Shown here: one piece after another, positions 23,067 through 52,130 of the stretch
Layout of the letters: each line of letters starts with the position of its first letter
Position numbering within the stretch: the stretch's first letter is position 1
Virus record (IMG/VR): IMGVR_UViG_3300032223_002232
Location: 1 to 64,000 of that record
Strand: one strand, 5' to 3'
Source of the DNA: a virus
Length of the DNA: 64,000 nt
Translations under genes and position numbers: made by a program
The notes under the pieces: generated by a model
Told to the model about the DNA's origin: nothing
Databases searched by the model: none
Seen by the model: the letters and a program-made list of their open reading frames with translations, nothing else

Positions 23067-24320
23067 TTAAAACTTAGGTAGTTTTCCAGTTAATCTTTCA
23101 CACCAACCTTTTGATTTAGAATGAGGCCATACAACCCAATAATCAGGTTTAACTTCTGTTTGGAATTCTAGGAATATCTTACAGTATTTGTCTGGATCAT
23201 TGAAATAATTTTTAATTTCATCTTCAGTTGAATCTTTTCTATATAATGTATCATTATTTTCCGAATGCATAGCAACAGCCCAAAAATCATAATCTTTTTC
23301 TGGTACGCTATCATAGCTAATATCAATACAATGTTTAAATATCTTCAAGAATGATTTATCATATTCATCGGGATCGTTATATGTAGGATTTGGTGCTAAA
23401 TTATTATCTAATGTATATCGTTGAACACTTCTATCTTTAAAACGTAAACCAGAATATGCTTCATATTCTTGTAATGTTCTTTTCTTACCAAACCCATAAA
23501 TTCCAAAATCTGTAGCTGGTGTTTCAGCATCCATACCAAAAAGTTTTCTGTTTTTAGCATGACACTTATTGTTTCTATCACACCATTTTTTGTCATCATC
23601 CCACTGTTTAGTTCTACCCTTTCTGGTATATTCATGCCAAGCCACAACTTTGTGTGGATGGAATAAATCATAACCCCATGTATAAGCTCTAGCTGCTATA
23701 GATATTTCCTCACCGTGAAAATAATATTCAGGATCATGTGGAACTTCTTTACAGAATTTACCTAAAGTGAAACAAAAATGAGCAGAGTAAAACCTAGCTG
23801 GAATTGGTTGAGTTCTTTCTTTAAAATCATCAATACTTGCTGGTAAAAAGAAAACAGCACCTTCTGGTATAAAACGATCAAAATTCATTTTCCAAGGAAT
23901 TTGAACTCTTGCATCTGGATCGTTATCTGGATCAAAACTAGGAATATAACCTGTAAGTAAAGGCTTTTTATGTCCTTTATCTTTAAGTTGTTTAACCATG
24001 TTGATCAACTCTTCATCCCAATTTTCAATAAATCTGTGATGACTATCAAGTTGCAAAGTATATTCCTCATCATCATACTTTTGTTGAATAGTATTTCTAG
24101 CCCAACATGCACCTTTTGATTCTTGATAAGGTACATCTATAATTTTAAATCTTGGGTCGTCTTTATATTGATCTAAATTTTCATTTTCATCATGTTGCCA
24201 ACAAATACAAAAAACCAAGTTTTCAGGTTTTTTAGCTTTATCTATACAATCTTTAACTGTGATTGGTAACTGTGGATCTCTATAAGATGCTATTTGTATA
24301 AATATTTTATTTTTTTTCAT
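23067..24320 (-). CDS. GT60-like polypeptide alpha-GlcNAc transferase (Gnt1/OGNT family)
   Basis: IFIQIASYRD, SKGACWAR, LQLDSHHRF (DSH motif), FHGEEI, GYDLF and WHEY. Confidence 0.85.
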   Translation of the reverse strand: MKKNKIFIQIASYRDPQLPITVKDCIDKAKKPENLVFCICWQHDENENLDQYKDDPRFKIIDVPYQESKGACWARNTIQQKYDDEEYTLQLDSHHRFIENWDEELINMVKQLKDKGHKKPLLTGYIPSFDPDNDPDARVQIPWKMNFDRFIPEGAVFFLPASIDDFKERTQPIPARFYSAHFCFTLGKFCKEVPHDPEYYFHGEEISIAARAYTWGYDLFHPHKVVAWHEYTRKGRTKQWDDDKKWCDRNNKCHAKNRKLFGMDAETPATDFGIYGFGKKRTLQEYEAYSGLRFKDRSVQRYTLDNNLAPNPTYNDPDEYDKSFLKIFKHCIDISYDSVPEKDYDFWAVAMHSENNDTLYRKDSTEDEIKNYFNDPDKYCKIFLEFQTEVKPDYWVVWPHSKSKGWCERLTGKLPKF

Positions 24321-31700: not shown

Positions 31701-32263
31701 GTAAAAATTAAACTATAGTTTGTATCACCAGCAAACAATACAATATGATTATCACCCAAAAGACAATTAAATTTTTGTGATTGATCAATTGGTGTTATTC
31801 TTGTTTTAAATGTTAAAGTATTATCAATATCACTTGTTAAGAATAATCCAAAATTATTTTGTATAGTTACCGTATTATCATCAATAAAATTAAAAATAAG
31901 CTTATCGTTTAATGTATAATTTGAATCAGAAACTGCCTTTAAAACATTATTAACAATTCTATATGTTGCATTGTCTGTTGTTGTTGCTAATGGACTTTCT
32001 ATAAGTGTTAAATTATTAATATTATTAGGTAAGTTACTATCTTTTAAGATGTTGCTATTTTTATTTAAATTAGTTAATATTATACCATTTTTGTTATTAA
32101 ATGAAACATCTTGTACATTGTTCAAGAAATCAAAAATATTAAATGACATACCATTATCAAATGTTACTGGTGTCTTTTTTAGACTAAATTGATCGCCTAT
32201 AACATTAAAGTTAACTGGACTCCAATATATGTCTGAAATATTATATGAACTAATGGGTATCAT
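28799..32263 (-). CDS. Virion protein with LamG/concanavalin-A-like domain interrupted by propeller repeats
   Basis: LTTSIWLN; GWHNFTFTFD...YYID; FIGDVGDLKMYN..LS...IKQLY; TAAATA at 32272-32277. Confidence 0.75.
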   Translation of the reverse strand: MIPISSYNISDIYWSPVNFNVIGDQFSLKKTPVTFDNGMSFNIFDFLNNVQDVSFNNKNGIILTNLNKNSNILKDSNLPNNINNLTLIESPLATTTDNATYRIVNNVLKAVSDSNYTLNDKLIFNFIDDNTVTIQNNFGLFLTSDIDNTLTFKTRITPIDQSQKFNCLLGDNHIVLFAGDTNYSLIFTENGSRQLVLTTLSNSTIPQTSIFKLASYINPERDYNSTSDSFIVKYDANPLINQKSLIIKDKDKDYYQNYLGVFPNENVSIDNHNNANYDFYFHGLKNYQTTEYDYNNNKLNRIYNKIYSGSNQTKGLDKIHLGYQTSAIKIEFPSNSITKFYFSPTSDIIPLSSSNLIEDGAIAGEFPYTSDRIFTSVKTNFRDIENIDILPTTDNHNKFLCSWLSNKNNNIVWYDRYYNSAYYTTNEALTSSGMTYNDKDPSLPFVYDIPSSTVFVPGTLYEYYHVGKQDSKNFLSDLDSRYVDGKYSHSNILSITNWLSSPILDDSTYGNNALAYEQNPLNFKGNYWHLDGTNHAIFPAKTTLLENEKLTTSIWLNVNDWANLDGYQIFGNYYDSGFGMICESRMFAPIISVSNAATGKLYNFNYRFGNVSTITAITTGFNMIQRMSNLGYWLFDSVHKIAAKYTVDDKLLLTTKITGISKIDQLTLDGNENFYIYDNSTKTYLVMDQNANFISSGLLESNANRLEISLADVNGRYNIIPIYGNASVIDNYNNIWEVIGTNLYKNREVYAIVGETNQMVCDNNNNIWILGSDDSYTKINSDGSIALKTSFSKSVLDNPNNCPPPPATVPPLLKKLNEDLPLLSSNNQKYILESRKRDQLLVTEILRSRSIPPTPPTKRIRTMGLINVPSNTLSTCYDKLSSNQIEDRIIIIDSTDNEAYLIDENGTPISKLNFFGLLDVNEQPAFFAYGDFTGHEYIRKYSKSHVSNNLSWKFSIASNLNGNDQRLLSLKYPISNLPKGWHNFTFTFDGPNGVAKYYIDTVLVDTVSFPKNYQLFYNYRTSLLLGATTIKNNILNNILNIDNGYKFIGDVGDLKMYNITLSQNDIKQLYYSSDFSPEITTLKWNMKVGKRNYIEEISNWFQFQLPTNKSKYFNINLHNLDVNGEVKTNIELAIRSIIDKLSPANTSLYKINWK

Positions 32264-32311: not shown

Positions 32312-35161
32312 TTATGGACTTATAATATATTCTGATGGTTGATGAGTTGTATACGTCTCTGTTGTAGAAGTTATTTGTAATTTTGAACCAAACTTTGTAG
32401 CATTACTAGAATCAAGATATATTGCACTAGCGTATTTAGTACCTGTTGTAGCTGTAAATACTGCTTTACGCAAAGGATATGCTTGAACTACACAGTTGTT
32501 ACTATCATTAAAGAATCTGCAACCGAAAAGTACATCCCAAATTTGAGTCATGTAAATTGAATTATTACCAGTTTTATTATAAATATCATAACTGCCACTA
32601 AGTGCTTGTGTTGTATTGGCATTTCTTAATGTAAATGCTGGGGCTGCAACCCAATTATCAACAACTGTTGATGTTCTAGATACATCAAAAGCTATATTAT
32701 TACCGTTTACAGTACCACCATATCCTAAAGTATGTGAAATACCCCATGATGGTAATTTAATTGAAGTTAATGTAGTACCATCAGTTGTAACACCATATGA
32801 TCCTCTAGTTGCATCTGTACCAGATGCAGTTACTGGATTTGGTGTTCTATTTGTTGTCATTATTTCACCTTTAACTGAACTAGCAACTAACCAATTTTTA
32901 GCTGTTAGTGGCGAAGCTGTTGGGTTTGATGCCAGATATGTAGCAAGAGCACCAGCAACCAGTGGTGTTGCGGCTGATGTTCCATTATGGAATATATATT
33001 TTCCTTTGTATATAGCACCATATGTTGAAGATTGATCTACAAAAAATGGTTCTTGATCAGCACCACTCATTTCACCAGTAATTGTTTTAAATTTATTAGT
33101 ACTATAATTATATGTTGTATTACTAAAACCAGACCAAACAGCGGATGCCTCTGCATAAATATCAACATCTGGTCCAAAATTACTATATGGACTCTTTACA
33201 TAAAACGGTTTTGTAAATGAACCTAGATATGAAGTGCCATTAAATGTTAAACCACTCCATCCATATTTTAAGTTAAGATTGTTTGTACCATTATTAAATA
33301 GAACCCCAGCAGAACCATCTGATGTAAATGGAGCATATGATGTATTATTATATATGAAACAATTAGCTACACCAGCAACAGTGGTATACCATTGAATACC
33401 ATTAATTACATTATAAATTGATCTACAATAACCACCAGTATCATATGTTTGATTTGGATTTGTTTCAAGTGTACCAAGGGCTGTGACACATCCAACTTTA
33501 ATTATTGGATAAGTTGTTCTACTCCAATTTGTACCTGTGCTAGAATCTATTCCAGCACCAATATCTGGTGATGAATATGATAAATTTATTGTATTTGATG
33601 CATTACCAATTGAACATAAAGTATATGTTGTTGTATTATAAGAATCTGCAATTGTATAAACACTACCAAGAGATAAACCAGTAGCATTATCAACATAATT
33701 ACCAGTAGCACTATCAATAACCTTTTGTCTGAATACAGACCATAATGTGTTATTAAAAACAGTTCCAGATGAAGTACCATCGCTTCTTAAGAAAGTTAAC
33801 ATTGGTAATAATGTTGGTGCTTTATAGTTTAATTCTAAATTTGAATTACCAGCAGCTACAACACAATGGATACCGTTAGCTAATAATACTCTAAAATAAG
33901 CATCATAAACATCGTTTTGTCCCGGTAATTGTCTTGAATAAATATTACCTTGATTATTTGTAGTGTTTGTGTAATAATTTAAATTATAAAATGGTAAGGA
34001 ATCATAAAAATCAAAATATGTAACTACACCAGTTGAACCATTTGTAGATGTTATTCTACCTCTAGTTGAACCTAGATCAAAAGATCCAGCAAGTAATCCA
34101 TCATTATTATTACCATTTGGTGTAGGTGATCCAGTTGAAACATATGAATCATACGCAACTGATATTGGACTTATTGGTTTTGTTTTACCAGAAGGTACAC
34201 CTGATGGACCTTGATATAACCAACGAATATTGGTATCTAAGAATGGTCCAGCGAAACCACTTATATATGGTCCATTTACATTCCAACTATTGGAACATAC
34301 TGTTGGTCTACCACTAGATAAACCAAATAAATTATTTTGTTTTGCAAATACAAATCCAACAGCAAGTCTCATACAACAAGCCATACTAAAACCAAATGCT
34401 GCACCCAGTTCACTAACATTTAATGTATAAATTCTTGCATTTTTAGCTAATCCACATTTTAAACCAGCTATCAATGATGCACACTTTGTACCATGACCAT
34501 CAAAATCAACATAATAATTTCCGGGCATACCAGCGTAACCGAATTCGGGTAAAATTGCAGAATATGTGGTATTATTAGTACCAGCATCATATACACCTGT
34601 AAATGGATCTACTAATTGACCCCAATCAAATAATTGTACTAGATTATTTCCAAGATTATCTTTTAAATCTTCACACGAAGGATCTACACCAGTATCAATT
34701 ACTAAAATATCAACGTTTGAACAATCAACAGAATATGACGTTAAAAGATTATTAGCTGGTGCGGTTTGATTATAATCTGGTTTATAATTTGTTGCATAAT
34801 ACAGACCTACAGGTGCTAAATTTCCAGTTGGTGCTGTTTTAGGATATTGTGTTGTACTAAGATTACCACAAGCAGCCCAACTAGCATTTCTATAAATAGC
34901 ATCAGGTTGTCTTTCTTTTACATAAGCCAATGAAATTGTTGTTAAGTCTGTTCTATTTACAGAAACAACATTATCTAATTTCCTAACAGCATCAACTTCT
35001 TCTTGACTGAGTTGAAACTCCATAATATCTGGAACCATATTATGGGGGTCAATACATACCTTTGCGCCCGATAAACAACCAGTACCACTTAATGGATCTG
35101 TTAACAAATCGTAAATATAATCACCTGTATTACGATCTGTTGTTGTTATACAAACTTTCAT
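32312..35161 (-). CDS. Subtilisin-like S8 serine protease with large insertions
   Basis: ILVIDTGV (D~156), DGHGTKCAS (H~223), VVAAGNS (N~439), NGTSAATPLVAG (S~729). Confidence 0.9.
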   Translation of the reverse strand: MKVCITTTDRNTGDYIYDLLTDPLSGTGCLSGAKVCIDPHNMVPDIMEFQLSQEEVDAVRKLDNVVSVNRTDLTTISLAYVKERQPDAIYRNASWAACGNLSTTQYPKTAPTGNLAPVGLYYATNYKPDYNQTAPANNLLTSYSVDCSNVDILVIDTGVDPSCEDLKDNLGNNLVQLFDWGQLVDPFTGVYDAGTNNTTYSAILPEFGYAGMPGNYYVDFDGHGTKCASLIAGLKCGLAKNARIYTLNVSELGAAFGFSMACCMRLAVGFVFAKQNNLFGLSSGRPTVCSNSWNVNGPYISGFAGPFLDTNIRWLYQGPSGVPSGKTKPISPISVAYDSYVSTGSPTPNGNNNDGLLAGSFDLGSTRGRITSTNGSTGVVTYFDFYDSLPFYNLNYYTNTTNNQGNIYSRQLPGQNDVYDAYFRVLLANGIHCVVAAGNSNLELNYKAPTLLPMLTFLRSDGTSSGTVFNNTLWSVFRQKVIDSATGNYVDNATGLSLGSVYTIADSYNTTTYTLCSIGNASNTINLSYSSPDIGAGIDSSTGTNWSRTTYPIIKVGCVTALGTLETNPNQTYDTGGYCRSIYNVINGIQWYTTVAGVANCFIYNNTSYAPFTSDGSAGVLFNNGTNNLNLKYGWSGLTFNGTSYLGSFTKPFYVKSPYSNFGPDVDIYAEASAVWSGFSNTTYNYSTNKFKTITGEMSGADQEPFFVDQSSTYGAIYKGKYIFHNGTSAATPLVAGALATYLASNPTASPLTAKNWLVASSVKGEIMTTNRTPNPVTASGTDATRGSYGVTTDGTTLTSIKLPSWGISHTLGYGGTVNGNNIAFDVSRTSTVVDNWVAAPAFTLRNANTTQALSGSYDIYNKTGNNSIYMTQIWDVLFGCRFFNDSNNCVVQAYPLRKAVFTATTGTKYASAIYLDSSNATKFGSKLQITSTTETYTTHQPSEYIISP

Positions 35162-35167
35162 TGTTTT

Positions 35168-35593
35168 TTAAACAAAGAATACTAATACTTTGTCGCCTGA
35201 TATTGTTGTAGAAAATGTTTTAAATTCTGCATTTGCAACCCTTGCTGCAAAATCACCCCATTTATCGATAGTTGTACTTGCAACCTTACCAGTAAGACTT
35301 ACTATTGGTGCTAATGAATTAACCATTATACTATCAAAAAGCTCACCAATATTATTTTCTGTAGCATAGTTATATAAAAACTCAATTGATGTATTTCTAT
35401 AAAGTTCTGTATATAAAACTATTTGTGATTTACATGAACATGAATTATCATAATAATAACTTACGATTTCTGCTGAAATATAAGGAGCAAATGTTTGAAA
35501 TTTAGTTACAAAATCATCCACTCCAGATAATTGTAACATACCTACGAATACATTTGATATTGGGTTATAAGCTTGTAATGTTTCTAATGTCAT
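35168..35593 (-). CDS. Hypothetical late protein
   Basis: TATAAATA at 35598-35605, 4 nt before the ATG. Confidence 0.75.
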   Translation of the reverse strand: MTLETLQAYNPISNVFVGMLQLSGVDDFVTKFQTFAPYISAEIVSYYYDNSCSCKSQIVLYTELYRNTSIEFLYNYATENNIGELFDSIMVNSLAPIVSLTGKVASTTIDKWGDFAARVANAEFKTFSTTISGDKVLVFFV

Positions 35594-35607: not shown

Positions 35608-36030
35608 TTAATTGATAAATTCAATTCCTTCTAATAACTGTGCAGATGCCATATTATTCAACGTATTTTGTAATTCAAATACTGTAACATTTGTTACAAT
35701 ATCTTGTAAATCTGATGATGGGAAAAGTTGAGGTGGTTGATTATATAAAGATGATACTGGTACAGTTTGAACCGAATCTATAGGTAATCCACTAATAAGT
35801 GGTGTAAAATGAGTAACATCGGATTCAAAATTTAATATAGCTGATACAATAGGTTTCATATATTCAGCTATTTGAATTAAAATATCTTTATCTGGATTTA
35901 AATTTGAAATGTTAATATTAACTGGTGAATATTCAGCAGATGGTCTTTTAAATTCAGTTGAATATGGTCTAACTAGTATACCATTTCCAACAATACTAGT
36001 TTCTAATATGCTAAAATTTACTTCATTCAT
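35608..36030 (-). CDS. Hypothetical late protein
   Basis: TAAATA boxes at 36038-36043 and 36045-36050. Confidence 0.75.
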   Translation of the reverse strand: MNEVNFSILETSIVGNGILVRPYSTEFKRPSAEYSPVNINISNLNPDKDILIQIAEYMKPIVSAILNFESDVTHFTPLISGLPIDSVQTVPVSSLYNQPPQLFPSSDLQDIVTNVTVFELQNTLNNMASAQLLEGIEFIN

Positions 36031-36066: not shown

Positions 36067-39000
36067 TTACCAGCTGAGTGTCGCACCATTAAGCGCATAT
36101 GGTCTTGTTATTGAACCTTCATTTGTTAATGAAACCGAACCAAGACCTTCAGTTGAGAATCCTGCTCTACCACCTACGCCTAATGCACCAGATTGAGCAA
36201 ACAATTGAACACCATTTACACCTGTTGCACCAAACCAATTACCATAACCACCCACGCTACCATATTGATCATTTGCTGCATTAAGTCCAGATCCAGTAGC
36301 TGCCCATCCAACAGGTGCTACTGTTGGTGATGATTCTACATAATTTCCAAGTGTTGGATTATTAATTTCCCATGCGAAGAAGTTGCCATTAACATTTTCT
36401 GTAGAAGTATTAGCAACATACCATGATCTACCATTAAATGTATATGTTGATGTTGGAGTCATTACGCCGCCTGCGCCCATACCCCATCCACCAGTTCCTC
36501 CAGCTGCTCTATATGTATATCCATTGACCTGTGATGTTGTTGTTTTTGATGTACATGTACCGTTGAGGCAGAATGACCAACAACTTCTCAATGTATGACC
36601 TGAGCAATATCCAAAGATACTGAATCCACCATCGCAACCACAAGAGCATCCACCACCTGTCATGTCTTGTCCATTACATGTTCCACATGATGAACCTCTA
36701 CTTCGACATGTACAGCCAAAAAGAAAATAAGGACATGTTGTTATTGTAGTTTGGATTGTATTTGTTGATTGCCAGTTAATACCAGCACCACCACCACCAC
36801 CGCCGCCGCCAGCATAGATTCTATTATAGTTAATGAGTGTAATTGGAATATCACTGTATATACATGTTCCACCCGGAGTACCACTACCACCTGCTGATAC
36901 AACTGTACTTGGTGTTGTTGAAGCTGCGCCTGTTGGTGCACCACCAGCACCACCAACACTATGAGCACCATATATGTTACCTAAATTGTAAATCTTAATC
37001 GTAGTTAATCCACTTGGGAAACCATTTTGTGGTGTATTGTTACTGGTTAAGATTGACATAGCAGGACATGGACCTGCTGCTTTATTTGTTAATACTCTAG
37101 CATTTGCCCAAGGTGAAGGTGCTACAGCTTGAGTTTGACTATTACCACCTGCATTACTTGAGTAAATTGTCACACCGTATGGAATAATAACTGTTAAGTT
37201 AAGTGCATTTGTACCATTCCACGTTGAATTCTTTCTAACATATTGGTAAAGATCAAGTTGATCTTGATCAGTTGGAATTGTTAAAGTTAAATTATATGTA
37301 CTACTCTGACCTTGGAAATATGGTGCAGCAATAAATTCTTCATTACTGAATACATAATTTCCACTTGCTGGTGCTGGTGGTGGAACTGGAGGTGTTCCAC
37401 CAGTTGTACCTCCACCGCCTGATGCTGGAGGTGTAGCTGCTGGTGTTTGTGAAAGTGCTGGTGTCTGTGTTACAGGATTTGAAGGTGTTTGTGTTACAGG
37501 ATTTGAAGGTGTTTGTGTTACAGGATTTGAAGGTGTTTGTGTAAATGTAGGAGTTGGTGTGTTGTAATTTGATGGTGTAACCGTCTTTGTCATCGTAGGC
37601 GTTACAGACGGTGTATTTGGTGGTGTTGTTGGTGTTACAGTTGGTGTGATTGTTGGTGTAACAGATGGTGTATTTACTGGTGTTCTTGTGACTGTTGGAG
37701 TTACAGTTGAAGATGGTGTATTTGTTGGTGTGATTGTAGATGTATTTGTAAGCGTAATTGTCGGACTGTTTGTAGGTGTATTTGTAGGTGTATTTGTAGG
37801 TGTATTTGTAGGTGTTGCTGTTGGTGATGATGTTGCACCCGGAGTTACAGTTGGTGTTGCCGTTTGTGAATTTGTAGGTGTAACTGTCTTTGTAGGAGTA
37901 TTTGTTGGTGTAGTTGTTGGTGTAACAGTAACCGTTGATGTAACTGTTAACGTTACAGATGGAGTAACACTATTAGTTATAGTTGGCGTTACGGTATTTG
38001 TAGGAGTATTTGTAGGAGTATTTGTAGGTGTAACTGTAGGCGTTACGGTTGGTGTATTTGTAGGAGTTGATGTTGCGCCAGATGTTTGTGTTGCTGTAAC
38101 GGTAGATGTTACTGTAGGAGTTGTTGTAGGAGTTGTTGTAGGAGTTACAGTTGGTGTTACGGTCGGAGTATTTGTAGGCGTTACTGTTGCCGTAACAGTT
38201 GGTGTGTTTGTTGGTGTAGCAGTTGGTGATGATGTTGCAGCAGGTGTATTTGTTGATGTTACGGTTACAGTAACAGTTGGTGTGACTGTTGGTGTATTTG
38301 TAGGAGTTACAGTAGGTGTTGTTGTTGGGGTTACCGTAGGAGTATTTGTAGGCGTTACTGTAGGTGTATTTGTTGGTGTTACAGTTGGTGTTGATGTTGC
38401 ACCAGATGATTGTGTTACAGTAACCGTCACAGTTACAGTTGGTGTATTTGTAGATGTAACTGTTGGTGTATTTGTAGGAGTTACAGTTGGTGTATTTGTC
38501 GGCGTTACAGTTGGTGTATTTGTTGGAGTATTTGTAGGTGTTACGGTTGGTGTTGATGTTGCACCAGATGATTGTGTTACTGTAACTGTAGTTGTAACGG
38601 TTGGGGTGTTTGTAGGTGTAACTGTTGGAGTAACAGTAGGAGTAACTGTTGGAGTAACTGTTGGAGTAGTTGTAGGTGTTACGGTAGGAGTAGTTGTAGG
38701 TGTTATTGTAGGTGTAACGGTTGCCGTGTTTGTAGGAGTAACTGTTGGGGTTGCAAATTGTGTTTTTGTTACAGTTACAGTTGTTGTTGATGTAACTGTA
38801 GTTGTAACGGTTGGGGTGTTTGTAGGTGTAACTGTTGGAGTAACTGTAGGAGTTACTGTTGGTGTAACTGTAGGAGTATTTGTTGGTGTTACTGATGTTG
38901 TTATTGTTGGCGTTACAGTTGGTGTTGCTGTTGGTGTGGATGTTGCACCAGATGTCGGTGATACTGTTACTGTTGTTGTAACTGTCGTTGTTGGTGTAAT

Positions 39001-42000
39001 TGTAGGAGTTGGTGTATTTGTAGGAGTTACAGTTGGTGTATTTGTAGGAGTTACGGTAGCAGAATTTGTAGGTGTTAATGAATTGGTTGGTGTAACTGTT
39101 TGAGTAGTTGTTGGTGTTATTGTTGGTGTAATTGTCGCTGTTACTGTTGGTGTGGATGTTGCCGTTGGTGATGATGTTGCGCCCGGAGTTACGGAAACAG
39201 TAGGAGTTATTGTTGTTGTTGGTGTGATCGTTGCTGAATTTGTTATTGTTGGTGTAATTGTCGGCGTAGCTGTAATAGTAGGTGTTATAGTCGGCGTTGG
39301 TGTTATTGTATTGGTTGGTGTTCTTGTGGGGGTTACAGTAGTTGTAACAGTTGATGTAATTGTTGGAGTGATTGATGGCGTATTTGTAATTGTTGCAGTA
39401 ACAGATGGTGTTGGTGTACTTGTTATTGTTGATGTTATTGTTGGGGTTGGGGTTGCCGTTGGTGTAGGAGATCCAAGCGGTGTTCTTGTGACTGTTATAG
39501 TTGGCGTAACTGTGTTTGTTGGTGTTATCGTTGCAGTCTGTGTTACTGTTGGTGTAACAGTTACAGTATTTGTAGGTGTGAGTGTTGGTGTTACGGAACT
39601 TGTTGGTGTATTGGTTGGTGTTATTGTTGATGTTACAGTTGGTGTTATAGTTGCAGTAACTGTAGTTGTGGGTGTAACTGTAGGTGTTGATGATGCCGCT
39701 GGTGTATTTGTAGGTGTGACGGTTGCTGTAACTGTTGATGTTACAGTTGGTGTGTTTGTTGGACTATTTGTAGGAGTAATAGTCTGAGTATTTGTTTGTG
39801 TAACAGTAGGTGTATTTGTAGATGTTGGTGTATTTGTTGGTGTTATAGTAGGAGTTTTTGTAACTGTAGCTGTTTGTGTATTTGTAGGAGTAATTGTTGG
39901 TGTAACCGTTACAGAAACAGTTGGTGTATTTGTAGGAGTTGAGGATGCTGCTGGTGTATTTGTCGGTGTTACAGTTGGTGTGTTTGTTGGACTTACAGTT
40001 GGTGTGTTTGTAGGTGTAACTGTTTGACTATTTGTCGGTGTATTTGTAGGAGTGTTTGTAGGAGTTACAGTTTGTGTTTTTGTAACTGTAGCTGTGACTG
40101 TAGGTGTGATAGTAGGTGTTACTGTATTTGTAGGAGTATTTGTAGGAGTTACGGTTGGAGAGTTTGTGGGTGTATTTGTTGGCGTAACTGTTACAGATGC
40201 TGTTGGAGTATTTGTAGGTGTTGATGATGCCGCTGGTGTTTGAGATTGTGTTACTGTTACAGTAACGGTTGGTGATACTGTTGGTGTAATTGTTGCAGTA
40301 ACAGATGGTGTAGGTGTTATCGTCACACTTGTTGTAGGTGTGATTGTTGGAGTATTTGTAGGTGTGAATGTAGGCGTTACAGTTACGGTATTTGTAGGAG
40401 TTACCGTTGCTGTAGTTGTTGGAGTAATTGTTGGTGTAACCGTTACAGATACCGTTGGAGTAATTGTTGGAGTTGAAGATGCCGCTGGTGTGTTTGTAGG
40501 AGTATTGGTCTGTGTATTTGTAGGAGTATTTGTAGGGGTGTTTGTAGGAGTTACAGTTTGTGTTTTTGTAATTGTTGGAGTAACTGTTACAGTGTTTGTT
40601 GGTGTTACTGATTTTGTTGGTGTTACAGTTTGTGTAACGGTTACAGTATTTGTTGGTGTTACGGTAGGAGTTACTGTTGATGTTGGTGTAATTGTCGCTG
40701 TTACTGTTGGTGTTACAGTTGGTGTTGAAGATGCAGCTGGTGTGTTCGTAGGTGTTACAGTAACAGTCGATGTATTTGTTGGAGTTGCCGTTGATGTTAC
40801 AGTTGGAGTTGGAGTGTTTGTAGGTGTAACTGTTGGAGTAACAGTTGGAGTTACTGTTGTTGTTTTTGTAACCGTAACCGTAGGTGTAATAGTTGCTGTA
40901 TTTGTAGGAGTATTTGTTGGTGTAACTGTTATTGTAACAGTTGGAGTTACTGATGCAGCTGGTGTTTGTGTTTGTGTAACAGTTGGTGTAATTGTTGGAG
41001 TGATTGTTGGTGTCTTTGTAACCGTAACTGTAGGTGTAGCTGTGCGAGTTGTTGTAGTGGTTATAGTTGGCGATACTGTTGGGGTAATCGTCGGTGTTAA
41101 TGTTGGCGTTCTTGTTGGTGTAGCAGTAGGCTTTGGTGTTTGTTCAAAAACAGGAACATCAGAATTGGCTAATTTAATTGTTGTAGCACCTCCACTATAA
41201 TAATTTAAAGTGTATTTAGAGTTACTATCTAATGGTGAATATAATGAATAAAATGCATTATATGGTGCTATTTGAAATGGTGCACAATAATTGCTAAGTG
41301 TTGAATTACTATTATCAGCTTTATTGTTAACTAATTGATTTTTAAATGTACTACTGAATATATATCCTGAAATATCTATTGTAGAATTATTTAAGAAAAC
41401 ATAATTTGGATTATTTTGATTACTATAATTTAAACTAATTACATATGAATAATCATATGTAGTTGATTTATTAGAAGTTAAATTAAATGTCCAAGTTGTA
41501 AGACCAAATCTATATGGCGTTACTATATTAAAAGATCTTTCAAAATTTAAAAATTGGAAATTTGTATTATTATAATTTAAAAATAAACGTCTATAAGTTT
41601 GATTATTTGAATCATCAATTGCAAGTGAACTTAATGTAAAATTAGTGCCTCTAAAAATTTGATCATTTAAAGTTAAATCGGTATTGGCTCCAATATTATA
41701 AAAAGATCTGGCTGTAAAATTACCATCAAATATTATTGATGCATTTAAATTACTACCATTACCAATTTCGGTATTTGTATTATAATCTAAAAATATAATT
41801 TTATTAAAATTACCAATGTTTTCTGTATTAATAAAACCTCTACTATGATAGGTCGGATTTACTCTATCAGAATTACCAATAATAGACAATCCGTAACCGG
41901 GATAATAATCAGGACCAGATGCACCTTGTATTAATTTCCAAGCTGTAGTATTCCAAGTTGCTGTACTTAAAAAGTATGGATCAGTTTGATTAATACCACA

Positions 42001-43668
42001 AACATATAATTTTGCATTTGAATATGCATCAATAGCACCATATGCATAGGTAGATGTACCAAGCATTGCTATTGTTATGTTTTGGATATTGGTTACGCCA
42101 GAATAAAAAATTAAAGCTGTTGAATCAAGAGCATTTGTATCAAACTCAAAACATAAATTTTTTAAATTTAAAGTTGTTTTTGGATGATGTGAAAATGAAA
42201 TTTGCCTTGCAAAAATTGGGTTGTTTCCATTTGAATAACAATCAATCCAATTTGATGCATTTGTTCCAAAATCTGAAAATTTTAAATTGTTATCAAAACT
42301 AATATACGTTCTAGTAGTTATTTTTCTTGGTGATATATTAAAAGGTTTTTTATCGGTATATACTGGAATAAAATTATTAGTTAAAAGGTTTGTTATGAGT
42401 TCTCCAATTTCATACATACCCAAAATTTCTACAGATAAGAAATCTAAATTAGATAAACTGAAATATGAAAATCCACCAGTTAAAGGAACACCTTTGTTTT
42501 TAGCCCAAATAAAATCACCACCTTTAATTCCTTGTGCATATAAATCTGGTTGATTAGCCTTCATCCAGTTTTCACTGAAATAAGCTGATGAAAGATTTCC
42601 ATTAAATGTACAACCAGAATAAGTTCCATCGTTTTTTGAATTATCTTCACCACAAACTAAATCATCATATATTAAAATTTTTAAAGAATTGCCAAATAGA
42701 TTATTATTTGAAACATAATCTAATACAGCTTTTATATTTTTAAAGAATGGTTTTGCTACACCAAAATCATCATTATGATCATGATCCCAAGCTGAACTTG
42801 TTTGTGATCTCACTACACTAATATTATCAGTAGATTGACTATCAGATGGTTTTACACCAAAAATATAATCGTTTTGATTTACTAGTGATAATTTATTTGC
42901 ATAATTATATTTTAAATTTGAAGATGTATCTAATGCAATATTAGCATATAGTTTATCACCATATAAATTTCCACCAATTGTTAAATTTTGATCTACATTT
43001 ATATCATTAGCTGTTAATTTATTAAATTTAGTAAATTGCGCAGAAACATAAGATGTATTTGTATTATTGTTTAGATATAAATTATTAACATATAAATTAT
43101 TTGATTGAATTTCAAAATTAATAGAACTTAAAATTTGATTATGAGTTAAAGACGTACTAGTTATATTGTTATATATTGTAGAAAGTAAATTTATAGTTGT
43201 GGTATTAATTGTATCACCAATTAATGTATTAAATGTTGCATTTGTATTTGAAGATATATTAGGTACAAAAGTTATACCGTTTGGATATCTTACATTTAAA
43301 CTTAAATTACCAACAAGATTATTACCTGTAATGGATGGTATATATGCATCTATAATTCCAACACTACCATTAATATCAAAATTAAAAATTGGATCTACTT
43401 TATTATAACCTATTTTATTGTTTTTAAGAATTAATGTATCATTAGATGTGAAAACTCTAGAGTTCTTATAAGATGAACTTATCCCAATTGTTAAGAAATA
43501 ATAAGTCTGTTCAGCTTGTGCAGTAGTATATGATAAAGGTAAACCTAAACAAGGTTCAACTGAATCAAGAGTTATAAACCCATAATTATAGGCATTACTA
43601 TTAATATCCGAAGCCGTTAAAGGCTTAAGAGGAAATAATTGTGTCAATGGAGTTAATGATATATCCAT
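36067..43668 (-). CDS. Giant fibre-like protein: ~840-aa N-terminal domain, ~1250-aa Thr/Pro mucin-like stalk, Gly- and Cys-rich C-terminal head (start likely ATG 43668)
   Basis: N-terminal domain colinear with 43733-46249; continuous TPTVTPTN-type repeats; AAGGGAG just upstream of the ATG. Confidence 0.85.
37430..41140 (-). repeat. Low-complexity coding repeat (TPT[V/N/I])n, including a perfect 3x24-nt tandem repeat at 37466-37537 (TQTPSNPV)
   Basis: Read directly from the sequence; synonymous codons vary between units. Confidence 0.95.
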
Positions 43669-43732
43669 AATCAACTCCCTTAACTTGGCTCATTTTGCCA
43701 TTTTAAAAATATTTTTAATAAAAATGCATTCA

Positions 43733-46249
43733 TTACCTAGTACTTTGTGTATAAAAATTTAGTGTATAATTTGTGTTTGTTTGATTAGTTGGACTATTTA
43801 AATTAAATATTCCATACTCATTAAAATTTTTGATACCATATATACTCGTGTAATAAATTTTATCATTAGTATTGAAGTTACTATTTTGTAAGAAATTAAT
43901 ATGACCCAAAGAATTTACAGAATTTGTTAATGATATATAAGATGGTGCATGTGTATCAAAAAATGTATAATAAGAATCATATACATTATTATAAACATTA
44001 AGGTATGTGTTATAATTTGTACCCTGAACTGAATCCTGTAATCTGAAACTCCAACTTGCAAATATATTGCTTATTGGTGTAAATGATGCAAATGAACCAT
44101 TAAAATTTAAATATTTGAAATTCAAATTATAATTTGATATTTCAATTTGATATGATGCATTTGTATTTTTATTATTATATATGATATATTTTGAACTTAA
44201 TCCAAATCCAGTTGTTTTGAATAAATTTTGTTGTAATGATACAGATGATCTATTGTCAAGATTAAACAAACAATTAGCATAAAAATTACCATCAAGTATA
44301 ATACTGCTTTGTATTAAAGAATAATGACCAATCTCTCTACTAGCAGCACTATAATCAATTAATGTTAATTTACCACCATCTCTTACGTTAATCAGACCTG
44401 TATATGGTTGTGCTTCTGTATAGTTTACAATTGTTCCAGTTTGATCTGCGGGATTTCCTACAATCGCTAAACCATAACCCGGATAATAATTTGGATCATT
44501 GAACCCATAACCTGTTGACCATGTATTCCAATTTTTATTACCATAAATGTTAGTTGTTAAATAATAAGGATCTAAAAGATTATTACCACAAATATTAATT
44601 GTTGCGAGTTCAGATTCGACGTTTAATGCACCATATGTGTATATACCATTACCTAATAAAGCAACAGTAATATTTGAGAGGTTATTATTACCATTGTAAA
44701 ATACTAAACCTGATGAATCTATTGAATTTGTATAAATTTCAAAACATAAATTGTTTATTGATAAATTTACAAGCTGCGATTGGTTAAATTGAATTGGGCG
44801 ACCTATGACTGAAGATTTTGTATAAACATCAGTCCATGTATTATAATCAGTACCGTAAAAATTATTAAATGGAACGGCTGAATTTGAACAAATATATGTT
44901 CTGCATGTTATTTTTCTTGGAGCAAAATTAAATGGTCTCCATGTTGAATAATATTTTGTTAAATCATTGTTTACATATGTACCAAGTTCATATCTACCTT
45001 GTATGTTGATATTATTAAATTTTAATGGGTATAAATTAATATAAAAATATTCTCCACTTATATCTGCACTATTATTTTTAGGCCAAATGAAATCGCCGCC
45101 TTTTATTCCAGAATAATATAAATCTGGATATACAGCTTGTAGATATTCTGAACTATAAAAAGCAGAAGATATATTACCAGTATATGAACAACCTGAATAA
45201 GAACCACTACTATCAGATGTCCATGCATTTGCTTTATTCTCACCAGCTACAATATCCTCATCAACCCATATTGTTAAGTTATTACCAAAAATACCATTAG
45301 TGTAGATGTAATCTATAACAGGTTGAATATTTTTAAAATAAGGTTTTAATGTATTTGAATCGGTTGATACACCATCAGTAGGACCATTTATTGTTCTTGC
45401 TATGTTTATATCATCGGTGGAATAACTATCTGATGGTCTAATTACGAAATAATAATTTTTATTTGTAGATACACTTAATTGATTTTGATTATTGTAATAT
45501 AAAGGTGATGATTCATCTATTGCAATTTTACCATAAAAATTATTAGCATAGATATCGTTTTTAACATTAACATCATTATTAACTGTAATTTTAGTTGAAG
45601 ATACTTGACCAATAAATGAATTATTCGAACTTAAATTTTGTGTTGTTAATTTATTAGAACTATATACATTATTAGCAGTTAAATTTGCTGTTATGCTTAC
45701 GTCATTTGTTGCATATAAAGAATTTAATATATATGTGCTTACATTTTTTGTTATATAATTAAAAATACCAGCATTTAAACTAAATGTAGTAATATTGTTA
45801 GCAGTTAATTTATTAGTATATGTAGTTGCATTAAAATAAACATCACTGTTAAAACTAACACCCTTTGCATAATTAACAACAAGAGTATCATTACCATATA
45901 GGTTAGATGCATTTAAGTTTGTTATATAAGCATCAGATGCTCTAAGATTACCACTAATATCAACATTATATGTTGGATTTGGGTTATTAATACCCAATTT
46001 TTTATTTCTGATTATTAATGAATCATTACCACTAAATTTTCTAGAATTTAAATAAGAATTGGCTATTCCAAATACTGGAAAATAATATGATGAATTACTT
46101 TCAAATAATGAATAACCAGTAGGGAGTCCTAGACTAGGTTCAACTGCACCAATTTCAATATACCCTGTATTATAAGCAGTACTATTAACATTGTAATCCA
46201 GCGGATTCAGTCTATACCTATTACCTACTGATGGAGGACTCGTTGACAT
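43733..46249 (-). CDS. Fibre/structural protein, stalk-less paralogue of 36067-43668
   Basis: Matching blocks: VEP(S/C)LGLP, KP(Y/F)[29 protein letters not shown](F/Y)Y. Confidence 0.85.
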   Translation of the reverse strand: MSTSPPSVGNRYRLNPLDYNVNSTAYNTGYIEIGAVEPSLGLPTGYSLFESNSSYYFPVFGIANSYLNSRKFSGNDSLIIRNKKLGINNPNPTYNVDISGNLRASDAYITNLNASNLYGNDTLVVNYAKGVSFNSDVYFNATTYTNKLTANNITTFSLNAGIFNYITKNVSTYILNSLYATNDVSITANLTANNVYSSNKLTTQNLSSNNSFIGQVSSTKITVNNDVNVKNDIYANNFYGKIAIDESSPLYYNNQNQLSVSTNKNYYFVIRPSDSYSTDDINIARTINGPTDGVSTDSNTLKPYFKNIQPVIDYIYTNGIFGNNLTIWVDEDIVAGENKANAWTSDSSGSYSGCSYTGNISSAFYSSEYLQAVYPDLYYSGIKGGDFIWPKNNSADISGEYFYINLYPLKFNNINIQGRYELGTYVNNDLTKYYSTWRPFNFAPRKITCRTYICSNSAVPFNNFYGTDYNTWTDVYTKSSVIGRPIQFNQSQLVNLSINNLCFEIYTNSIDSSGLVFYNGNNNLSNITVALLGNGIYTYGALNVESELATINICGNNLLDPYYLTTNIYGNKNWNTWSTGYGFNDPNYYPGYGLAIVGNPADQTGTIVNYTEAQPYTGLINVRDGGKLTLIDYSAASREIGHYSLIQSSIILDGNFYANCLFNLDNRSSVSLQQNLFKTTGFGLSSKYIIYNNKNTNASYQIEISNYNLNFKYLNFNGSFASFTPISNIFASWSFRLQDSVQGTNYNTYLNVYNNVYDSYYTFFDTHAPSYISLTNSVNSLGHINFLQNSNFNTNDKIYYTSIYGIKNFNEYGIFNLNSPTNQTNTNYTLNFYTQSTR

Positions 46250-46264
46250 AGGATTACAAACTGA

Positions 46265-46633
46265 TTAGTATGGTGTATTAACTGTTTCTAATATAGATAA
46301 TGTTATATTAATTTTATTATTATTAGCGGCAGATACGATAAAATTATCGTAAGCTTGTAAAACCAATTTATTAACTACGATGTTTACAGTGTCGTTTGGT
46401 GGTAATTGGAATCCTTGGAGTATGCTAATTGATGGTGATGCTTGTACATCCCCACCGGGACTAGCTGTGGTTGATAATGCAGCATTTACTGTTTGTGCTG
46501 TGCTATCAGTATTTGTAGCTAATGCTGAGATTATTATACCTGCTCGTTGGAACGGTGTGGTGTATATCGACGTTGGTGTAGTTGTCACCGCTGTTGATAT
46601 TCTTTTGAAGTAATTTAAGGGTATTTTTGCCAT
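46265..46633 (-). CDS. Small T4-like virion structural protein
   Basis: IYTTP...AGII...ATN, KLVL...D and LSILET pattern; TATAAATA at 46640-46647. Confidence 0.65.
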   Translation of the reverse strand: MAKIPLNYFKRISTAVTTTPTSIYTTPFQRAGIIISALATNTDSTAQTVNAALSTTASPGGDVQASPSISILQGFQLPPNDTVNIVVNKLVLQAYDNFIVSAANNNKINITLSILETVNTPY

Positions 46634-48765: not shown

Positions 48766-50433
48766 TTATGCTGTATAAGATCCAGATGAATTAAATGTTA
48801 AAATTGTATTGGAACCATTTGTTGTTACACTTGGAGATCCTGTTGTTATGTTAGAATATCTGGATGTTGGTATTGAAAGTATAACAACACCAGAACCACC
48901 GTCAGCTGGATGTCCACCAGTATTATATGAACCTCCACCCCCACCTCCACCTTTATTGGCTGTTCCGTTCTGTGCAGCACTTGTTTGTGTTCCACCATTA
49001 CCACCTCCACCATTACCACCGTTACCGCTATTTGATCCACTATAGCCACCACCGCCACCGCCACCACCACCGTAATATAACCCTGTTATATTTACTTGTA
49101 AACCATCACCGCCATTTGCACCAATAGCATCCCACAATCCATTGCCTTCTCCGTTACCTCCGTTTTGATTAGAACCAGCACCACCAGCACCACCAACGCC
49201 ATAGGTGTGGGAACCGCCAGTAAAGCCATTTCCGCTATTACCACCTTGTAAACCAGCTGCTCCATTTCCACCTATTGCTGTTAATGTTCCTACGATTGAT
49301 GAATCTTGCCCATTTGTTCCAGTATATGAACCAGCACCACCAGCACCAACAATAATATTATAAATCTGGTTAGCTGTTACATTAATTGTTGAAAAATTAA
49401 CTGCACCAGCACCACCACCATTACCGGGACCGGGAGCACCAGAATAGCAGCCACCTCCACCTGCACCAACTGTTAAATAATTTATATTATATGTTGGATC
49501 ATATGTTGGTGTTGGAGTTAAAGTTGGTGTTGGAGTTAAAGTTGGTGTTGGAGTTAAAGTTGCTGATGGGGTATATGTTGGTGTAACAGTTGATGTTGGA
49601 GTATATGTTGGCGTAACAGTTGATGTTGGAGTATATGTTGGAGTTATAGACGGCGTTGGTGTTGGTGTTAGTGTTGCAGTTGGCGTAATTGTAGGCGTTG
49701 GTGTAGGCGTTGGTGATGGTATATAGTCAAGAATAAATGAACTTGAATTACCAAAAAGAGAAAATGCATTGGTTGTGTTTAATACACCATAAGGTATAAA
49801 TGAATTAATTTCTAATATATCTTTTGTGTTTAAATTGATACTAATTAAACCATTTTGTCCAATATCATTTTTAACAAAAAATGAAATATTAAAAACATTA
49901 GTATCAATATTATATGTTAACTTTGGATCTTCTTTTATGCCATTAGATGATAATAAATTTGTTATAGTATCAAATCCCAAAACTATATATTTTTGAAAAA
50001 TTTGATTTATTTTACCTGTGTTAATATTAAATTCTTTAAAAAATAAACAAAATTTTATATTTTGATTATTATCAATAACTAATGGATTAAATCCACAAAA
50101 ATATACTTTTTGGTTTAACTCATCAAACCAGTAATCAATATTTGTATCTGATAAATTATGATGAAAATCAAATAAACTATGTGGTTTTATAGTATTACCA
50201 TCAAAAACTAATTTTTCAAATATATAACCATTTTTAGTTTGAATAAAAATACTATCATAAAATACATCAAATCTTGTAATAATATTATAATTTAAATCAT
50301 AATAAAAATCAGGATGTAAAAATTCATATTTTAAATAAACAGAAGATAGAATTTCATTAGCAGATTTAACATTATTCTGCACATCTCTTAACCAAAGCTC
50401 TCCGTTGTAATTTATATCATTATAAAAGTTCAT
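48766..50433 (-). CDS. Structural protein with Pro/Thr linker and C-terminal Gly-rich domain (start likely 50433)
   Basis: ATGA overlap with upstream stop; PTPT repeats at ~49500-49722; [10 protein letters not shown]...GGSGVVIL. Confidence 0.8.
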
Positions 50434-52130
50434 GGTGTATATGGTGGATAAATTGAAGTGTAGGATGCTAATGAAGCGGATACAGGCCAACGGTAATATG
50501 TACTGAATAAGTTATATAAGTCGGCATTAACAGCTTGTGATACCGCTAGTGCGAATGTATCGCAAGCATTTTCTATATCTGAACCTGATGTAATATTTAT
50601 TTGTTTAATATTACTCCAAGTGTATAATAAGAATTGATCTCCAAATTTATTATATAAATCAAACATGAATGAAGCAAACATATCAGTACCCTGTAACGAT
50701 AATGCATTTGTTGGTGCTATATTATCATAAACTGTATTCATGAAATTATAAGATGGATCTGCTATATATGTATTAATTAAATTAATTACACCATATTTAA
50801 AATCATTGAATGGTGTACCATTAAATGGTGCGCCGTTTACTCCAGCAGAATCCATAGACATAAATCTCATAAATACCGCAAATCCAGTGGTAACCGTTTC
50901 ACTTGGTGTTGCATCAACTCTTCTTAAACTATCAACCCAGAAATTCCTTCCTAATTCATAGAATAATACTTGATCAAATTGATTATTCAAATTAACACCG
51001 CTATAAAGAGCATCCCATGATGATCTGAGTAATTCAATACCAGTTCTACCTAATTCACCACAACCAGAACCACATGTAGTGTTAACAACACTTACAGGAT
51101 CTTTACCTCTTAAAGTTACAAGTGTTAATGGATATTCACCGATTACTCTATAATAGAAGTCATAAGCTTTATCTAATTTATAGATTATATAATCTATTAC
51201 TGCTCGGTTTACATTTATGTTGGAAGGAATTTGTAAAGCTACATTTCTTCCAAGATAAGCTTTCATGTTGTAATTTACACTATCAAAACTTGTATATAAT
51301 GTATCTATTACTAATGAAGGACCATATGGTAGTGTTGGTGTTGGTGTAACCGTTGGTGTATGAGTGATTGTTGGTGTTATTGATGGAGTTGGTGTCGGTA
51401 TTTGTAATGATCTTGTAACTGTTGGTGTTATAGTTGGTGTTACAGTTGGTGTTGGTTGTATTTGTGGAATTGGGTTTAGATCTGGATTTACTATAGTTGT
51501 TTTTTCGTAAGGTATGATCGTTACTTCATTATTAACATTAGCAGATGTTAATGTTTTAAATTTACTAGTAAATGGATAAATATAGTTATAAGGTTTACTT
51601 AATTTATCAGCTGATATAATTGGTTTTGGTTTTAATTTCCAGTTAACCAAAGACATCAATATATTATTTTCATTTTGAGTTTGGAATGTATAAAGAATTT
51701 TATTGTCAGGTCCAAACATTTTAGTTTTTATTAAATGTATTTCATTGAAGAATTTATCAACACCATAATCCATTGGTGGATTTTTTAAATTTAATAAAAT
51801 TGTAAATGTTACAATATCAGAACTACCAAAAACATAAACATTTACATTAACTACATAAGTTGAAAGACTTAAATCTTTTGAATAAAACTCTTTAGTTTTT
51901 GGGTAATTTCTAGGATCACCTATTTCATTTGAAATTGGTAACCTATTATCTGAACCTAAAACTGGTTTAAATTTTACAATATCAGAAGTACCATCACCCC
52001 AAATATACTCAATCATTCTAATTTTATGAGATAATGATAAAGTTCTTGGGTCTATAGTTAAATCAAAAGGGGCATAATCACTAATAATTTGATTATCAGA
52101 ATTAAGATAAACTGTACGATTATAAACCAT
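50430..52130 (-). CDS. Structural protein: PKD-like N-terminus, Pro/Thr linker, degenerate zincin-like C-terminal domain
   Basis: [10 protein letters not shown]...YIWGDG; TPT linker at ~51330-51455; [10 protein letters not shown]; TAAATA at 52137-52142. Confidence 0.7.

Follow-up and report, generated by a model that had tools for sequence, protein, structure and literature searches.

A predicted tailspike with a Thr/Pro-rich tether and a gp38-like head in a distant T4-like freshwater phage

Two adjacent genes in a block of fiber-like genes

The DNA analyzed here (the window) comprises the opening 64 kb of an IMG/VR virus record of 169,763 bp, IMGVR_UViG_3300032223_002232, whose estimated completeness is 77%. 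Two adjacent minus-strand genes within it are the subject of this study, one for a protein of 838 amino acids (aa) and, downstream of it, one for a protein of 2,533 aa that carries a Thr/Pro-rich stalk and a C-terminal head in addition to the region common to both. The longer gene probably encodes a three-part receptor-binding protein (tailspike, tether, and gp38-like adhesin) of an uncultured freshwater myovirus that is a remote relative of T4. Among the products of the record are a gp23-type major head protein and a large terminase of the T4 type, both sharing 32 to 34% identity with their counterparts in cyanomyoviruses and in the rhizobiophages phiM9 and phiM12, and by these two proteins the phage is placed as a distant member of the T4-like myoviruses. 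It is assigned to fresh water, and lake metagenomes were the source of related contigs. The G+C content of the window is ~30% but 40% across the Thr/Pro repeat. From 25 to 64 kb the window is a single minus-strand run of large fiber-like genes, among whose products are matches to tail-fiber PHROGs, Gly_rich_2 domains, NHL/PKD repeats, a pentaxin-like lectin domain, and an S8 subtilase.

The long gene is one open reading frame (ORF) without a stop, open from 36067 to 43674 when read from a TTG start. ATG at 43668 is the more probable start and is preceded by an AAGGGAG Shine-Dalgarno sequence with six bases between. A preliminary description of the locus, made from the sequence alone, had used this start and had held that the short protein matches the beginning of the long one block by block up to the motif YTLN(Y/F)Y. 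Pairwise alignment recovered this block over ~830 aa, and the paralogy is real, with 38% identity over 748 aa by BLASTP (E value, 5e-127) and 36% overall in a global alignment. By region, identity was 43% in the anchor (first 120 residues), 29% in the neck (next 140), 40% in the helix core, and 28% in the C-terminal cap, and the last shared motif was YTLNYY (residues 821 to 826) in the long copy and YTLNFY in the short copy. The features are collected in Table 1.

A third protein of the same record, outside the window (743 aa; G000:C1:80886-83117, minus strand), has only the ~127-aa N-terminal anchor in common with the pair (37% identity to anchor residues 1 to 127) and no family match. It is followed by genes at 83166-85025 and 85069-86550, which include one for a protein that is Thr/Pro rich throughout residues 154 to 493.

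Table 1. Features of the two paralogous genes and of further genes in the window
Feature	Position	Strand	Remarks
Short paralogue, 838 aa	43733..46249	-	Predicted anchor aa 1-120, beta-rich neck 120-262, right-handed parallel beta-helix 265-835; without stalk or head
Long gene, 2,533 aa	36067-43668	-	Predicted tailspike, Thr/Pro stalk, and head
Long gene, N-terminal anchor, aa 1-120	43315..43668	-	Common to the short copy and a third protein
Long gene, parallel beta-helix body, about aa 265-830	41185..42882	-	Ends YTLNYY; fold by homology to the short-copy model
Long gene, stalk, aa 845-2083, 1,239 aa	37426..41142	-	(T-P-T-x)n in about 13 segments of 54-128 aa; AASS/GATS hinges
Long gene, C-terminal head, aa 2084-2535, 452 residues	36067..37425	-	Gly 17.7%; six Gly-rich runs, three enlarged loops
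Head, 12-Cys hypervariable insert, aa 2314-2374 (61 residues)	36553..36735	-	Between the third and fourth Gly-rich runs
Conserved 122-aa gene	46265..46633	-	Directly upstream of the short paralogue; phrog_1276
141-aa gene	35168..35593	-	Just downstream of the long gene; no family match
GT60-type glycosyltransferase	23067..24320	-	Pfam "GlcNAc" PF11397; E value 4.4e-69, 234 bits (cutoff 21)
GT17-like gene	15179-15949	+	Pfam match
TylF methyltransferase + HtrL + glycosyltransferase fusion	15946-18291	-	Pfam match
GT31 galactosyltransferase-like gene	20630-22171	-	Pfam match
RXYLT1-C-like gene	22181-23065	-	Pfam match

The shared module is modeled as a complete tailspike

No Pfam family (E value up to 1) and no PHROG (E value up to 0.01) was found for either copy or for the isolated N-terminal module or head, and tblastn with the short copy and with the head gave no match in 50,697 phage records. 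Metagenomes contained relatives of the short copy in 46 clusters, each of about 840 aa and each labeled hypothetical. In a 28-sequence alignment (A1), every invariant column, including Asp, Arg, Trp, and Tyr columns, also holds for the row of the long copy. An AlphaFold2 (AF2) model of the short copy built on this alignment had a mean predicted local distance difference test (pLDDT) score of 77.8, low for residues 1 to 122 and high from about residue 265 to the end (>85 for most of residues 265 to 838).

Exhaustive comparison of this model using VIA-align identified 73 PDB chains with Z of at least 8, all of them right-handed parallel beta-helices of tailspikes, lyases, and esterases. The best match was the tailspike of cyanophage Pam1 (7eea_A; Z, 13.7; root mean square deviation [rmsd], 3.0 over 223 residues), followed by alginate and pectate lyases and pectin methylesterases (Z, 13.5 to 12) and the tail fibers of phage 7-7-1 (Z, 12.1), with CBA120 and HK620-type tailspikes also among the top matches. 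Foldseek searches of PDB with the tailspike model returned weak rows (best E value, 0.1), every one a beta-helix.

In the model, the shared ~830 aa form a complete tailspike comprising an anchor, a neck, and a right-handed parallel beta-helix, so that the base of the long protein probably has a second task besides docking, the binding or cutting of glycan. The likeness to known phage tailspikes (Pam1 7EEA, CBA120 TSP2, and HK620) and to the pectate/alginate lyase fold lies in the fold of residues 265 to 835 (Z, 13.7 to 10) and, for tailspikes, extends to an N-terminal particle-binding segment and the presence of several paralogous spikes per genome; unlike them, the proteins here have no sequence-family match. 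The earlier proposal that the two proteins dock at equivalent virion sites is upheld in one respect, in that an anchor of ~120 aa common to three proteins fits a shared docking domain and equivalent sites, and needs amending in another, as the shared region would be a whole tailspike and not only a dock. Counting against this docking assignment, pLDDT in the anchor was <50.

The duplication is old and the stalked design recurs

The short copy had a longer paralogue after it and the 122-aa gene before it in every case, across four IMG/VR loci and several contigs from metagenomes. A maximum-likelihood tree of the helix region placed the short copies of the window and of loci L004, L005, L007, and L019 in one clade (support, 95/94) and the long copies of the window, L004, L005, and L007 in a separate clade (support, 90/96). 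Because short and long copies form separate clades, the duplication is old and predates the window phage and these relatives. A tandem duplication in which one copy gained a stalk and a head is therefore borne out as to paralogy, but not as a recent event in this genome.

The long copies of relatives differ in what they carry. That of L004 (1,204 aa) has an internal insert and is without a stalk, and those of L006 and L022 (2,276 to 2,451 aa) have a long N-terminal extension, also without a stalk. The L005 copy (at least 1,068 aa) enters a Thr/Pro tract just past YTLNYY that reaches the contig end. In the 1,279-aa copy of L007, a complete genome of 225,756 bp, a Thr/Pro stalk (about 200 aa) is followed by a Gly/Cys-rich head. 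As this copy has both a stalk and a homologous head, the combination of tailspike, stalk, and head is common to at least one other phage. What is distinctive of the window genome is the roughly six-fold-longer stalk (1,239 versus ~200 aa), a comparison that the preliminary description had called for. The metagenome scan yielded few further informative long copies, and a search for longer, stalked relatives of the N-terminal module found none; the same search also missed the query's own protein.

A long, synonymously scrambled Thr/Pro/Val stalk

Thr accounts for 46.0% of the stalk, Pro for 17.8%, Val for 11.2%, Ser for 6.5%, and Asn for 6.3% (Thr, Pro, and Ser together, 70%), and Asp, Glu, Trp, His, and Cys do not occur at all, with three Phe and one Tyr. 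The base unit is four residues, the commonest tetrapeptides (VTPT, TVTP, TPTN, and TPTV) being found 58 to 65 times each, and super-repeats of 54 to 94 aa are superimposed on it. Six TPAAS(S) hinges in the first half (residues 904, 978, 1062, 1146, 1240, and 1324) are 74 to 94 residues apart, and six GATS(S/T) hinges in the second half (residues 1498, 1576, 1704, 1758, 1866, and 1946), together with AATS at residue 1812, are 54 to 128 apart. The reading of this region as a tract of about 1,250 Thr/Pro/Val/Asn residues practically devoid of acidic and aromatic residues and punctuated by recurring hinges was accurate, with 13 hinges located. A long Pro/Thr/Ser-rich tandem-repeat tract is a feature of mucin-like proteins and is present here. 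Thr/Pro linkers of 60 to 340 aa are found in five further proteins of the same genome.

At the DNA level, Tandem Repeats Finder and a repeat finder detected only degenerate repeats (60 to 80% identity; periods of 12 and 162 nt), except for a near-perfect 24-nt unit at the very end of the stalk that encodes 3.5 copies of TQTPSNPV; the longest exact repeat was 54 nt. Twenty-two recurring octapeptides, with 231 occurrences, had 204 distinct DNA encodings. Segments delimited by hinges shared 66 to 94% protein identity and 65 to 84% DNA identity, and about half of the identical residues used the same codon, which is the expectation from genome codon usage alone. Synonymous sites are therefore saturated, and the tract is old, kept at the protein level, as the varied codons had suggested at the outset, and resolvable by short reads. 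Antisense ORFs on the plus strand at 37646-39103, 39152-39787, and 40340-41200 were rejected as genes, being by-products of the ACN/CCN/GTN codon repeat.

An assembly artefact in the repeat was the weakness foreseen in the preliminary description; on this reading the 3.7-kb repeat would stem from expansion or chimerism, and the real gene would be much shorter or split. The record is a short-read metagenome assembly, and such tracts can break assemblies, as the end of the L005 contig inside its Thr/Pro tract indicates. Set against this are a frame that stays open for 7.6 kb in a 30% G+C genome, DNA repeats that are only 60 to 84% identical and scrambled at synonymous positions, with no long exact copies, stalk junctions with helix and head that are homologous to those of L007 and to the leaders of the stand-alone heads described below, and Thr/Pro/Ser tracts of up to 2,083 aa in other phages. 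We give an artefact hardly any credence.

The composition of the extension suggests a long flexible tether carrying a tip, as had been proposed. In general, densely O-glycosylated mucin domains measure ~0.25 nm per residue. A 1,239-residue tether would thus span ~310 nm if densely O-glycosylated and ~440 nm if fully extended, while as an unmodified random coil its end-to-end distance would be only some tens of nanometers. Glycosylation therefore decides whether the reach of a few hundred nanometers envisaged earlier applies.

The head resembles gp38 adhesins

The terminal domain had been called a Cys/Gly-rich head, which is right as to composition (18% Gly; 12 Cys in 61 residues), but it is better named a gp38-type adhesin on the structural comparisons that follow. 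Exhaustive HMMER searches found only eight relatives among 1.84 billion representatives (best E value, 5e-47; 45% identity), by which the head is a rare domain, and neither the head alignment nor one of the relatives, P0049, gave a match when viral contigs were scanned. The L007 head is remotely homologous (hhalign probability, 97.4%).

An AF2 model of the head, built on ten sequences, was compared using VIA-align. The nearest structures were S16 gp38 (6f45_D; Z, 15.6; rmsd, 5.6; 211 of 248 residues; 24% identity) and the receptor-binding domain of PP01 gp38 (9v85_C; Z, 14.5; rmsd, 3.4; 198 of 222 residues), and the next best fold had Z of 7.3. Foldseek matches in BFVD (E values, 4e-12 to 1e-4) included entries with the name "Receptor-recognising protein Gp38," tail-fiber proteins, and proteins of cyanophages P-SSM2 and MED4-213. 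When the head profile was aligned to S16 gp38 (NC_020416) using hhalign, the probability was 81% (E value, 1.2e-5) over strand-plus-polyglycine motifs, and the motif I-x-N-x-G-x-I-x-GGGGGG is common to both.

The polyglycine-II sandwich of gp38 is built from glycine-rich motifs, and the receptor is bound by hypervariable segments that protrude from it (PMC12032242). The head has the corresponding sandwich and beta-helix fold in a model whose loops are unreliable, and in place of about five glycine-rich motifs with hypervariable segments between them it has six runs, with inserts that cannot be aligned among homologues. As modeled, it is a gp38-like polyglycine-II sandwich adhesin with a presumptive binding role. 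Several observations weigh against this assignment. Mean pLDDT was 58, with core blocks at 72 to 88 and three loops very low; the Pfam GP38 (PF05268) match at 36763-37020 reached 10.6 bits (E value, 0.027), below the cutoff of 25 bits, and hmmscan gave no GP38 match for the head; and gp38 was absent from matches of the head hidden Markov model to PDB sequences (E values up to 10), where only spurious nanobody and G-protein rows appeared.

Compared with gp38 of T2/T6/S16/PP01-type Straboviridae, the head is alike in fold (21 to 24% identity over about 200 residues), in the alternation of Gly-rich and variable segments, and in its place at the distal tip of a fiber in a T4-like phage. It differs in two respects. 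gp38 is a separate monomeric protein of 25 to 30 kDa bound noncovalently to the tip of gp37, whereas here the adhesin is the C-terminal domain of a 2,533-aa ORF and is covalently fused to the fiber; and gp38 has about 250 aa against 450 aa for the head, which is larger because of three large loop inserts, one of them with 12 Cys. Three of the relatives, P0048 (487 aa), P0051 (517 aa), and P0049 (496 aa), on contigs of 5.3, 7.4, and 33.9 kb, look like stand-alone proteins. P0048 and P0050 begin at the same position with a Gly/Pro-rich leader followed by NY-x-F, and this leader is homologous to the stalk-head junction of the window protein. In S16, g38 follows g37 (NC_020416). The head probably originated as a gene of its own that lay behind a fiber gene, like T-even g38 after g37, and later became fused in frame.

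The 12-Cys insert was modeled with low confidence. Its counterparts in the eight homologues that have such an insert contain 12, 12, 16, 14, 14, 12, 8, and 6 Cys and are otherwise unalignable; as the count is always even in spite of this, a fully disulfide-bonded hypervariable loop is argued for.

Another reading of the long protein is that it decorates the head, neck, or whiskers and sticks to particles, mucus-like matrices, or host aggregates, or forms a hydrated brush against aggregation. Its anchor has no family match, the major capsid gene is only about 25 kb away, and glycosylated surface fibrils are carried by giant viruses and some phages. The nearest solved structures to its head, by a wide margin, are nevertheless the gp38 adhesins of long tail fibers, its beta-helix base is tailspike-like, and neighboring genes match tail-fiber PHROGs, which makes a decoration very unlikely and favors a receptor-binding protein.

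Two neighboring fiber-like proteins, encoded at 25669-27120 and 48766-50490 (both minus strand), have Pfam Gly_rich_2 (PF21722) as their C-terminal end. BLASTP and hhalign matches between them and the head were limited to the poly-Gly run, and the head is not claimed to be the same domain. Thr/Pro linkers of 60 to 90 aa occur in one of these two proteins and in its neighbor at 50430-52130.

Glycan enzymes and candidate O-glycosylation of the stalk

The window also encodes a cluster of glycan enzymes (Table 1). The product of 23067-24320 matched profile positions 2 to 44 and 100 to 350 of the 352 in PF11397, which corresponds to CAZy family GT60, and had no sequence relative with a solved structure. 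Characterized members of the PF11397 family transfer alpha-GlcNAc onto Thr of Trypanosoma cruzi mucins and Dictyostelium glycoproteins, and the same family also uses hydroxyproline of the cytoplasmic protein Skp1 as an acceptor (PMC3769586). In T. cruzi gp72, a tract of the PTVTPT type bears about 50% carbohydrate (PMC3630849). A prolyl hydroxylase (PF13640) was not found in the record, which is 77% complete, so Thr is the likelier acceptor than hydroxyproline. The enzyme is a candidate initiator of O-glycosylation of Thr/Pro tracts, and the genes between 15179 and 23065 are candidates for chain extension and capping, with a role in modification of DNA or host glycans also possible. Dictyostelium PsA reportedly has O-GlcNAc on PTVT repeats, which is left out of the evidence weighed here.

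To these systems (T. cruzi TcOGNT-2, Dictyostelium Gnt2, and Gnt1 on Skp1) the phage is alike in enzyme family, in a Thr-rich tract with Pro as putative acceptor, comparable to gp72, and in the presence of a possible GT31-like extender; they are eukaryotic, whereas here the setting would be a bacteriophage and bacterial cytoplasm. Phage-encoded glycosyltransferases act on the phages' own virion proteins in mycobacteriophages Che8, Corndog, and Myrna (Freeman et al. 2023, as cited in PMC12619734), whereas here such action is predicted. The mycobacteriophage glycans described in that citation are on short C-terminal extensions of capsid or tail-tube subunits and shield against antibodies, unlike the candidate acceptor in the window, a giant tether within a receptor-binding protein.

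The neighborhoods of GT60-type homologues were surveyed in 72 other phage loci for ORFs with a Thr/Pro tract of at least 30 aa. Such an ORF was within 10 kb in 46 of the 72 loci (31 of 47 clusters after dereplication at 90% DNA identity) and directly adjacent in 17, compared with 0 of 12 terminase-centered control loci of the same lineage (Fisher's exact test, P of about 3e-5), and in two relatives the GT60-type enzyme adjoins the tailspike pair. These counts are not independent, coming from related loci with a small control (n = 12), so that the link between GT60-type enzymes and Thr/Pro tracts is an association and not proof.

A stalk of the same architecture that is unglycosylated and collapsed would hold the head within a few tens of nanometers, and the glycosyltransferases would then serve DNA hypermodification or host-surface remodeling. 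Besides the dependence among the counts, three observations speak for this and against a glycosylated tether: the GT60-type gene is 12 kb downstream of the long gene, on the same strand and not adjacent; some parts of the glycan cluster bear a weak resemblance to DNA-glycosylating enzymes (TAGT, phrog_842, and glucosyl-HMC-transferase-like matches); and Xanthomonas phage XacN1 has a GT60 homologue without a Thr/Pro-rich neighbor. Pro/Thr linkers of bacterial cellulases, moreover, are spacers even when unglycosylated. Speaking against it are the strong association of the homologues with Thr/Pro-tract ORFs, 17 of them directly adjacent, a stalk with 46% Thr and Pro at every fourth position that resembles known O-glycosylation acceptors, and the polypeptide substrates of the characterized family enzymes (PMC3769586). 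An unglycosylated stalk is on balance unlikely. A 3,313-aa ORF near the XacN1 homologue was considered as a mucin-like protein and rejected, as it is not mucin-like.

Several other uncultured phages with GT60 homologues encode giant proteins with Thr/Pro/Ser tracts as long as or longer than that of the window (L071:13035-20756 and L071:1239-9920, both plus strand; L069:17209-21246; L058:4625-8761; and L082:735-4529). In one 2,574-aa protein from the GT60 loci, Cys-rich end domains flank 2,083 Thr/Pro/Ser-rich residues. By their sequences, giant mucin-like stalks recur in this phage group.

A 1,000-aa protein encoded at 12172-15174 (plus strand) adjoins the glycan-enzyme cluster on the opposite strand. 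It has an RCC1-type beta-propeller, a DUF5122 propeller repeat, and Thr/Pro linkers at residues 298 to 384 and 407 to 469, and is another candidate acceptor.

Other genes near the paralogues and in the window

The 122-aa gene had a homologue (44 to 55% identity) in the same position in seven of seven related loci. Among five loci compared, a homologue of the 141-aa gene was present only in L007, which has stalk and head, and missing in L004, L006, and L022, which have neither; its product may be a head- or stalk-specific assembly factor. For a 140-aa ORF immediately after the long gene (35608-36030, minus strand), there was neither a family match nor a homologue in the related loci.

A Peptidase_S8 (subtilase) domain is present in the 949-aa product of a gene (32312-35161, minus strand) located two genes downstream of the long one. 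No homologue of this product was found in the related loci examined, and it could process fibers or attack a proteinaceous host surface layer. A 1,154-aa protein encoded at 28799-32263 (minus strand) has a C-terminal pentaxin/lectin-like match of 24.7 bits (cutoff, 25); four relatives have it as well, conserved at 43 to 52% identity and encoded downstream of their long paralogue. A 1,532-aa protein encoded at 6943-11541 (plus strand) gave weak von Willebrand factor A matches and belongs to no PHROG family.

Proposed mechanism and implications

The finding combines known kinds of component, namely, a tailspike, a gp38 adhesin, and, putatively, virion glycosylation. A literature search found no description of a tailspike-tether-gp38 architecture and none of a tailspike with a low-complexity C-terminal extension of >1,200 aa and a second receptor-binding domain.

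In the mechanism that we propose, the ~830-aa tailspike of the long protein, paralogous to its 838-aa neighbor, would probably be mounted on the tail, presumably as a trimer, in a position equivalent to that of the neighbor. Beyond the distal tip of the helix, every chain would run on as a flexible tether of 1,239 aa with 13 Ala/Ser/Gly hinges, which, judging from its composition and gene neighborhood, is probably stiffened and extended by O-glycans started by the phage GT60-type GlcNAc-transferase in the host cytoplasm. A monomeric gp38-like adhesin at the end of each tether would then be the first part to touch a host surface receptor, through its enlarged loops and above all the 12-Cys insert, in a contact that is probably reversible. 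The tether would widen the capture radius, and after capture the beta-helix modules of both paralogues would engage surface polysaccharide near the baseplate.

Known phage fibers are rigid, folded, and mostly trimeric rods, whose folded length sets their reach. A further reading, which we advance tentatively, is that large freshwater phages make true mucins, a phage-encoded, eukaryote-type GT60 pathway densely O-glycosylating Thr/Pro tracts of >1,000 residues within receptor-binding proteins to a contour length of ~300 to 400 nm and so casting gp38-type adhesins far out. Such tethers might be several times the length of a T4 long tail fiber and capture hosts in the manner of a flexible "fishing line," unlike the rigid trimeric fibers.

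In the long protein, two recognized receptor-binding modules, a tailspike and a gp38-type adhesin, would be joined by a low-complexity tract as long as many whole fibers, and the same phage encodes a member of the family by which mucin-type glycosylation is begun in protists. A Cys insert so variable, yet always even in its Cys count, suggests a recognition loop knotted by disulfides, one that would form only after lysis. Should the tether prove to be glycosylated and extended, the kinetics of adsorption in dilute lake water would depend on a polymer tether and not on particle size, and a mucin-type O-glycosylation pathway would be run by bacterial viruses in the bacterial cytoplasm. gp38-type adhesins would in that case be portable modules working far beyond the Enterobacteria phages in which they were defined.

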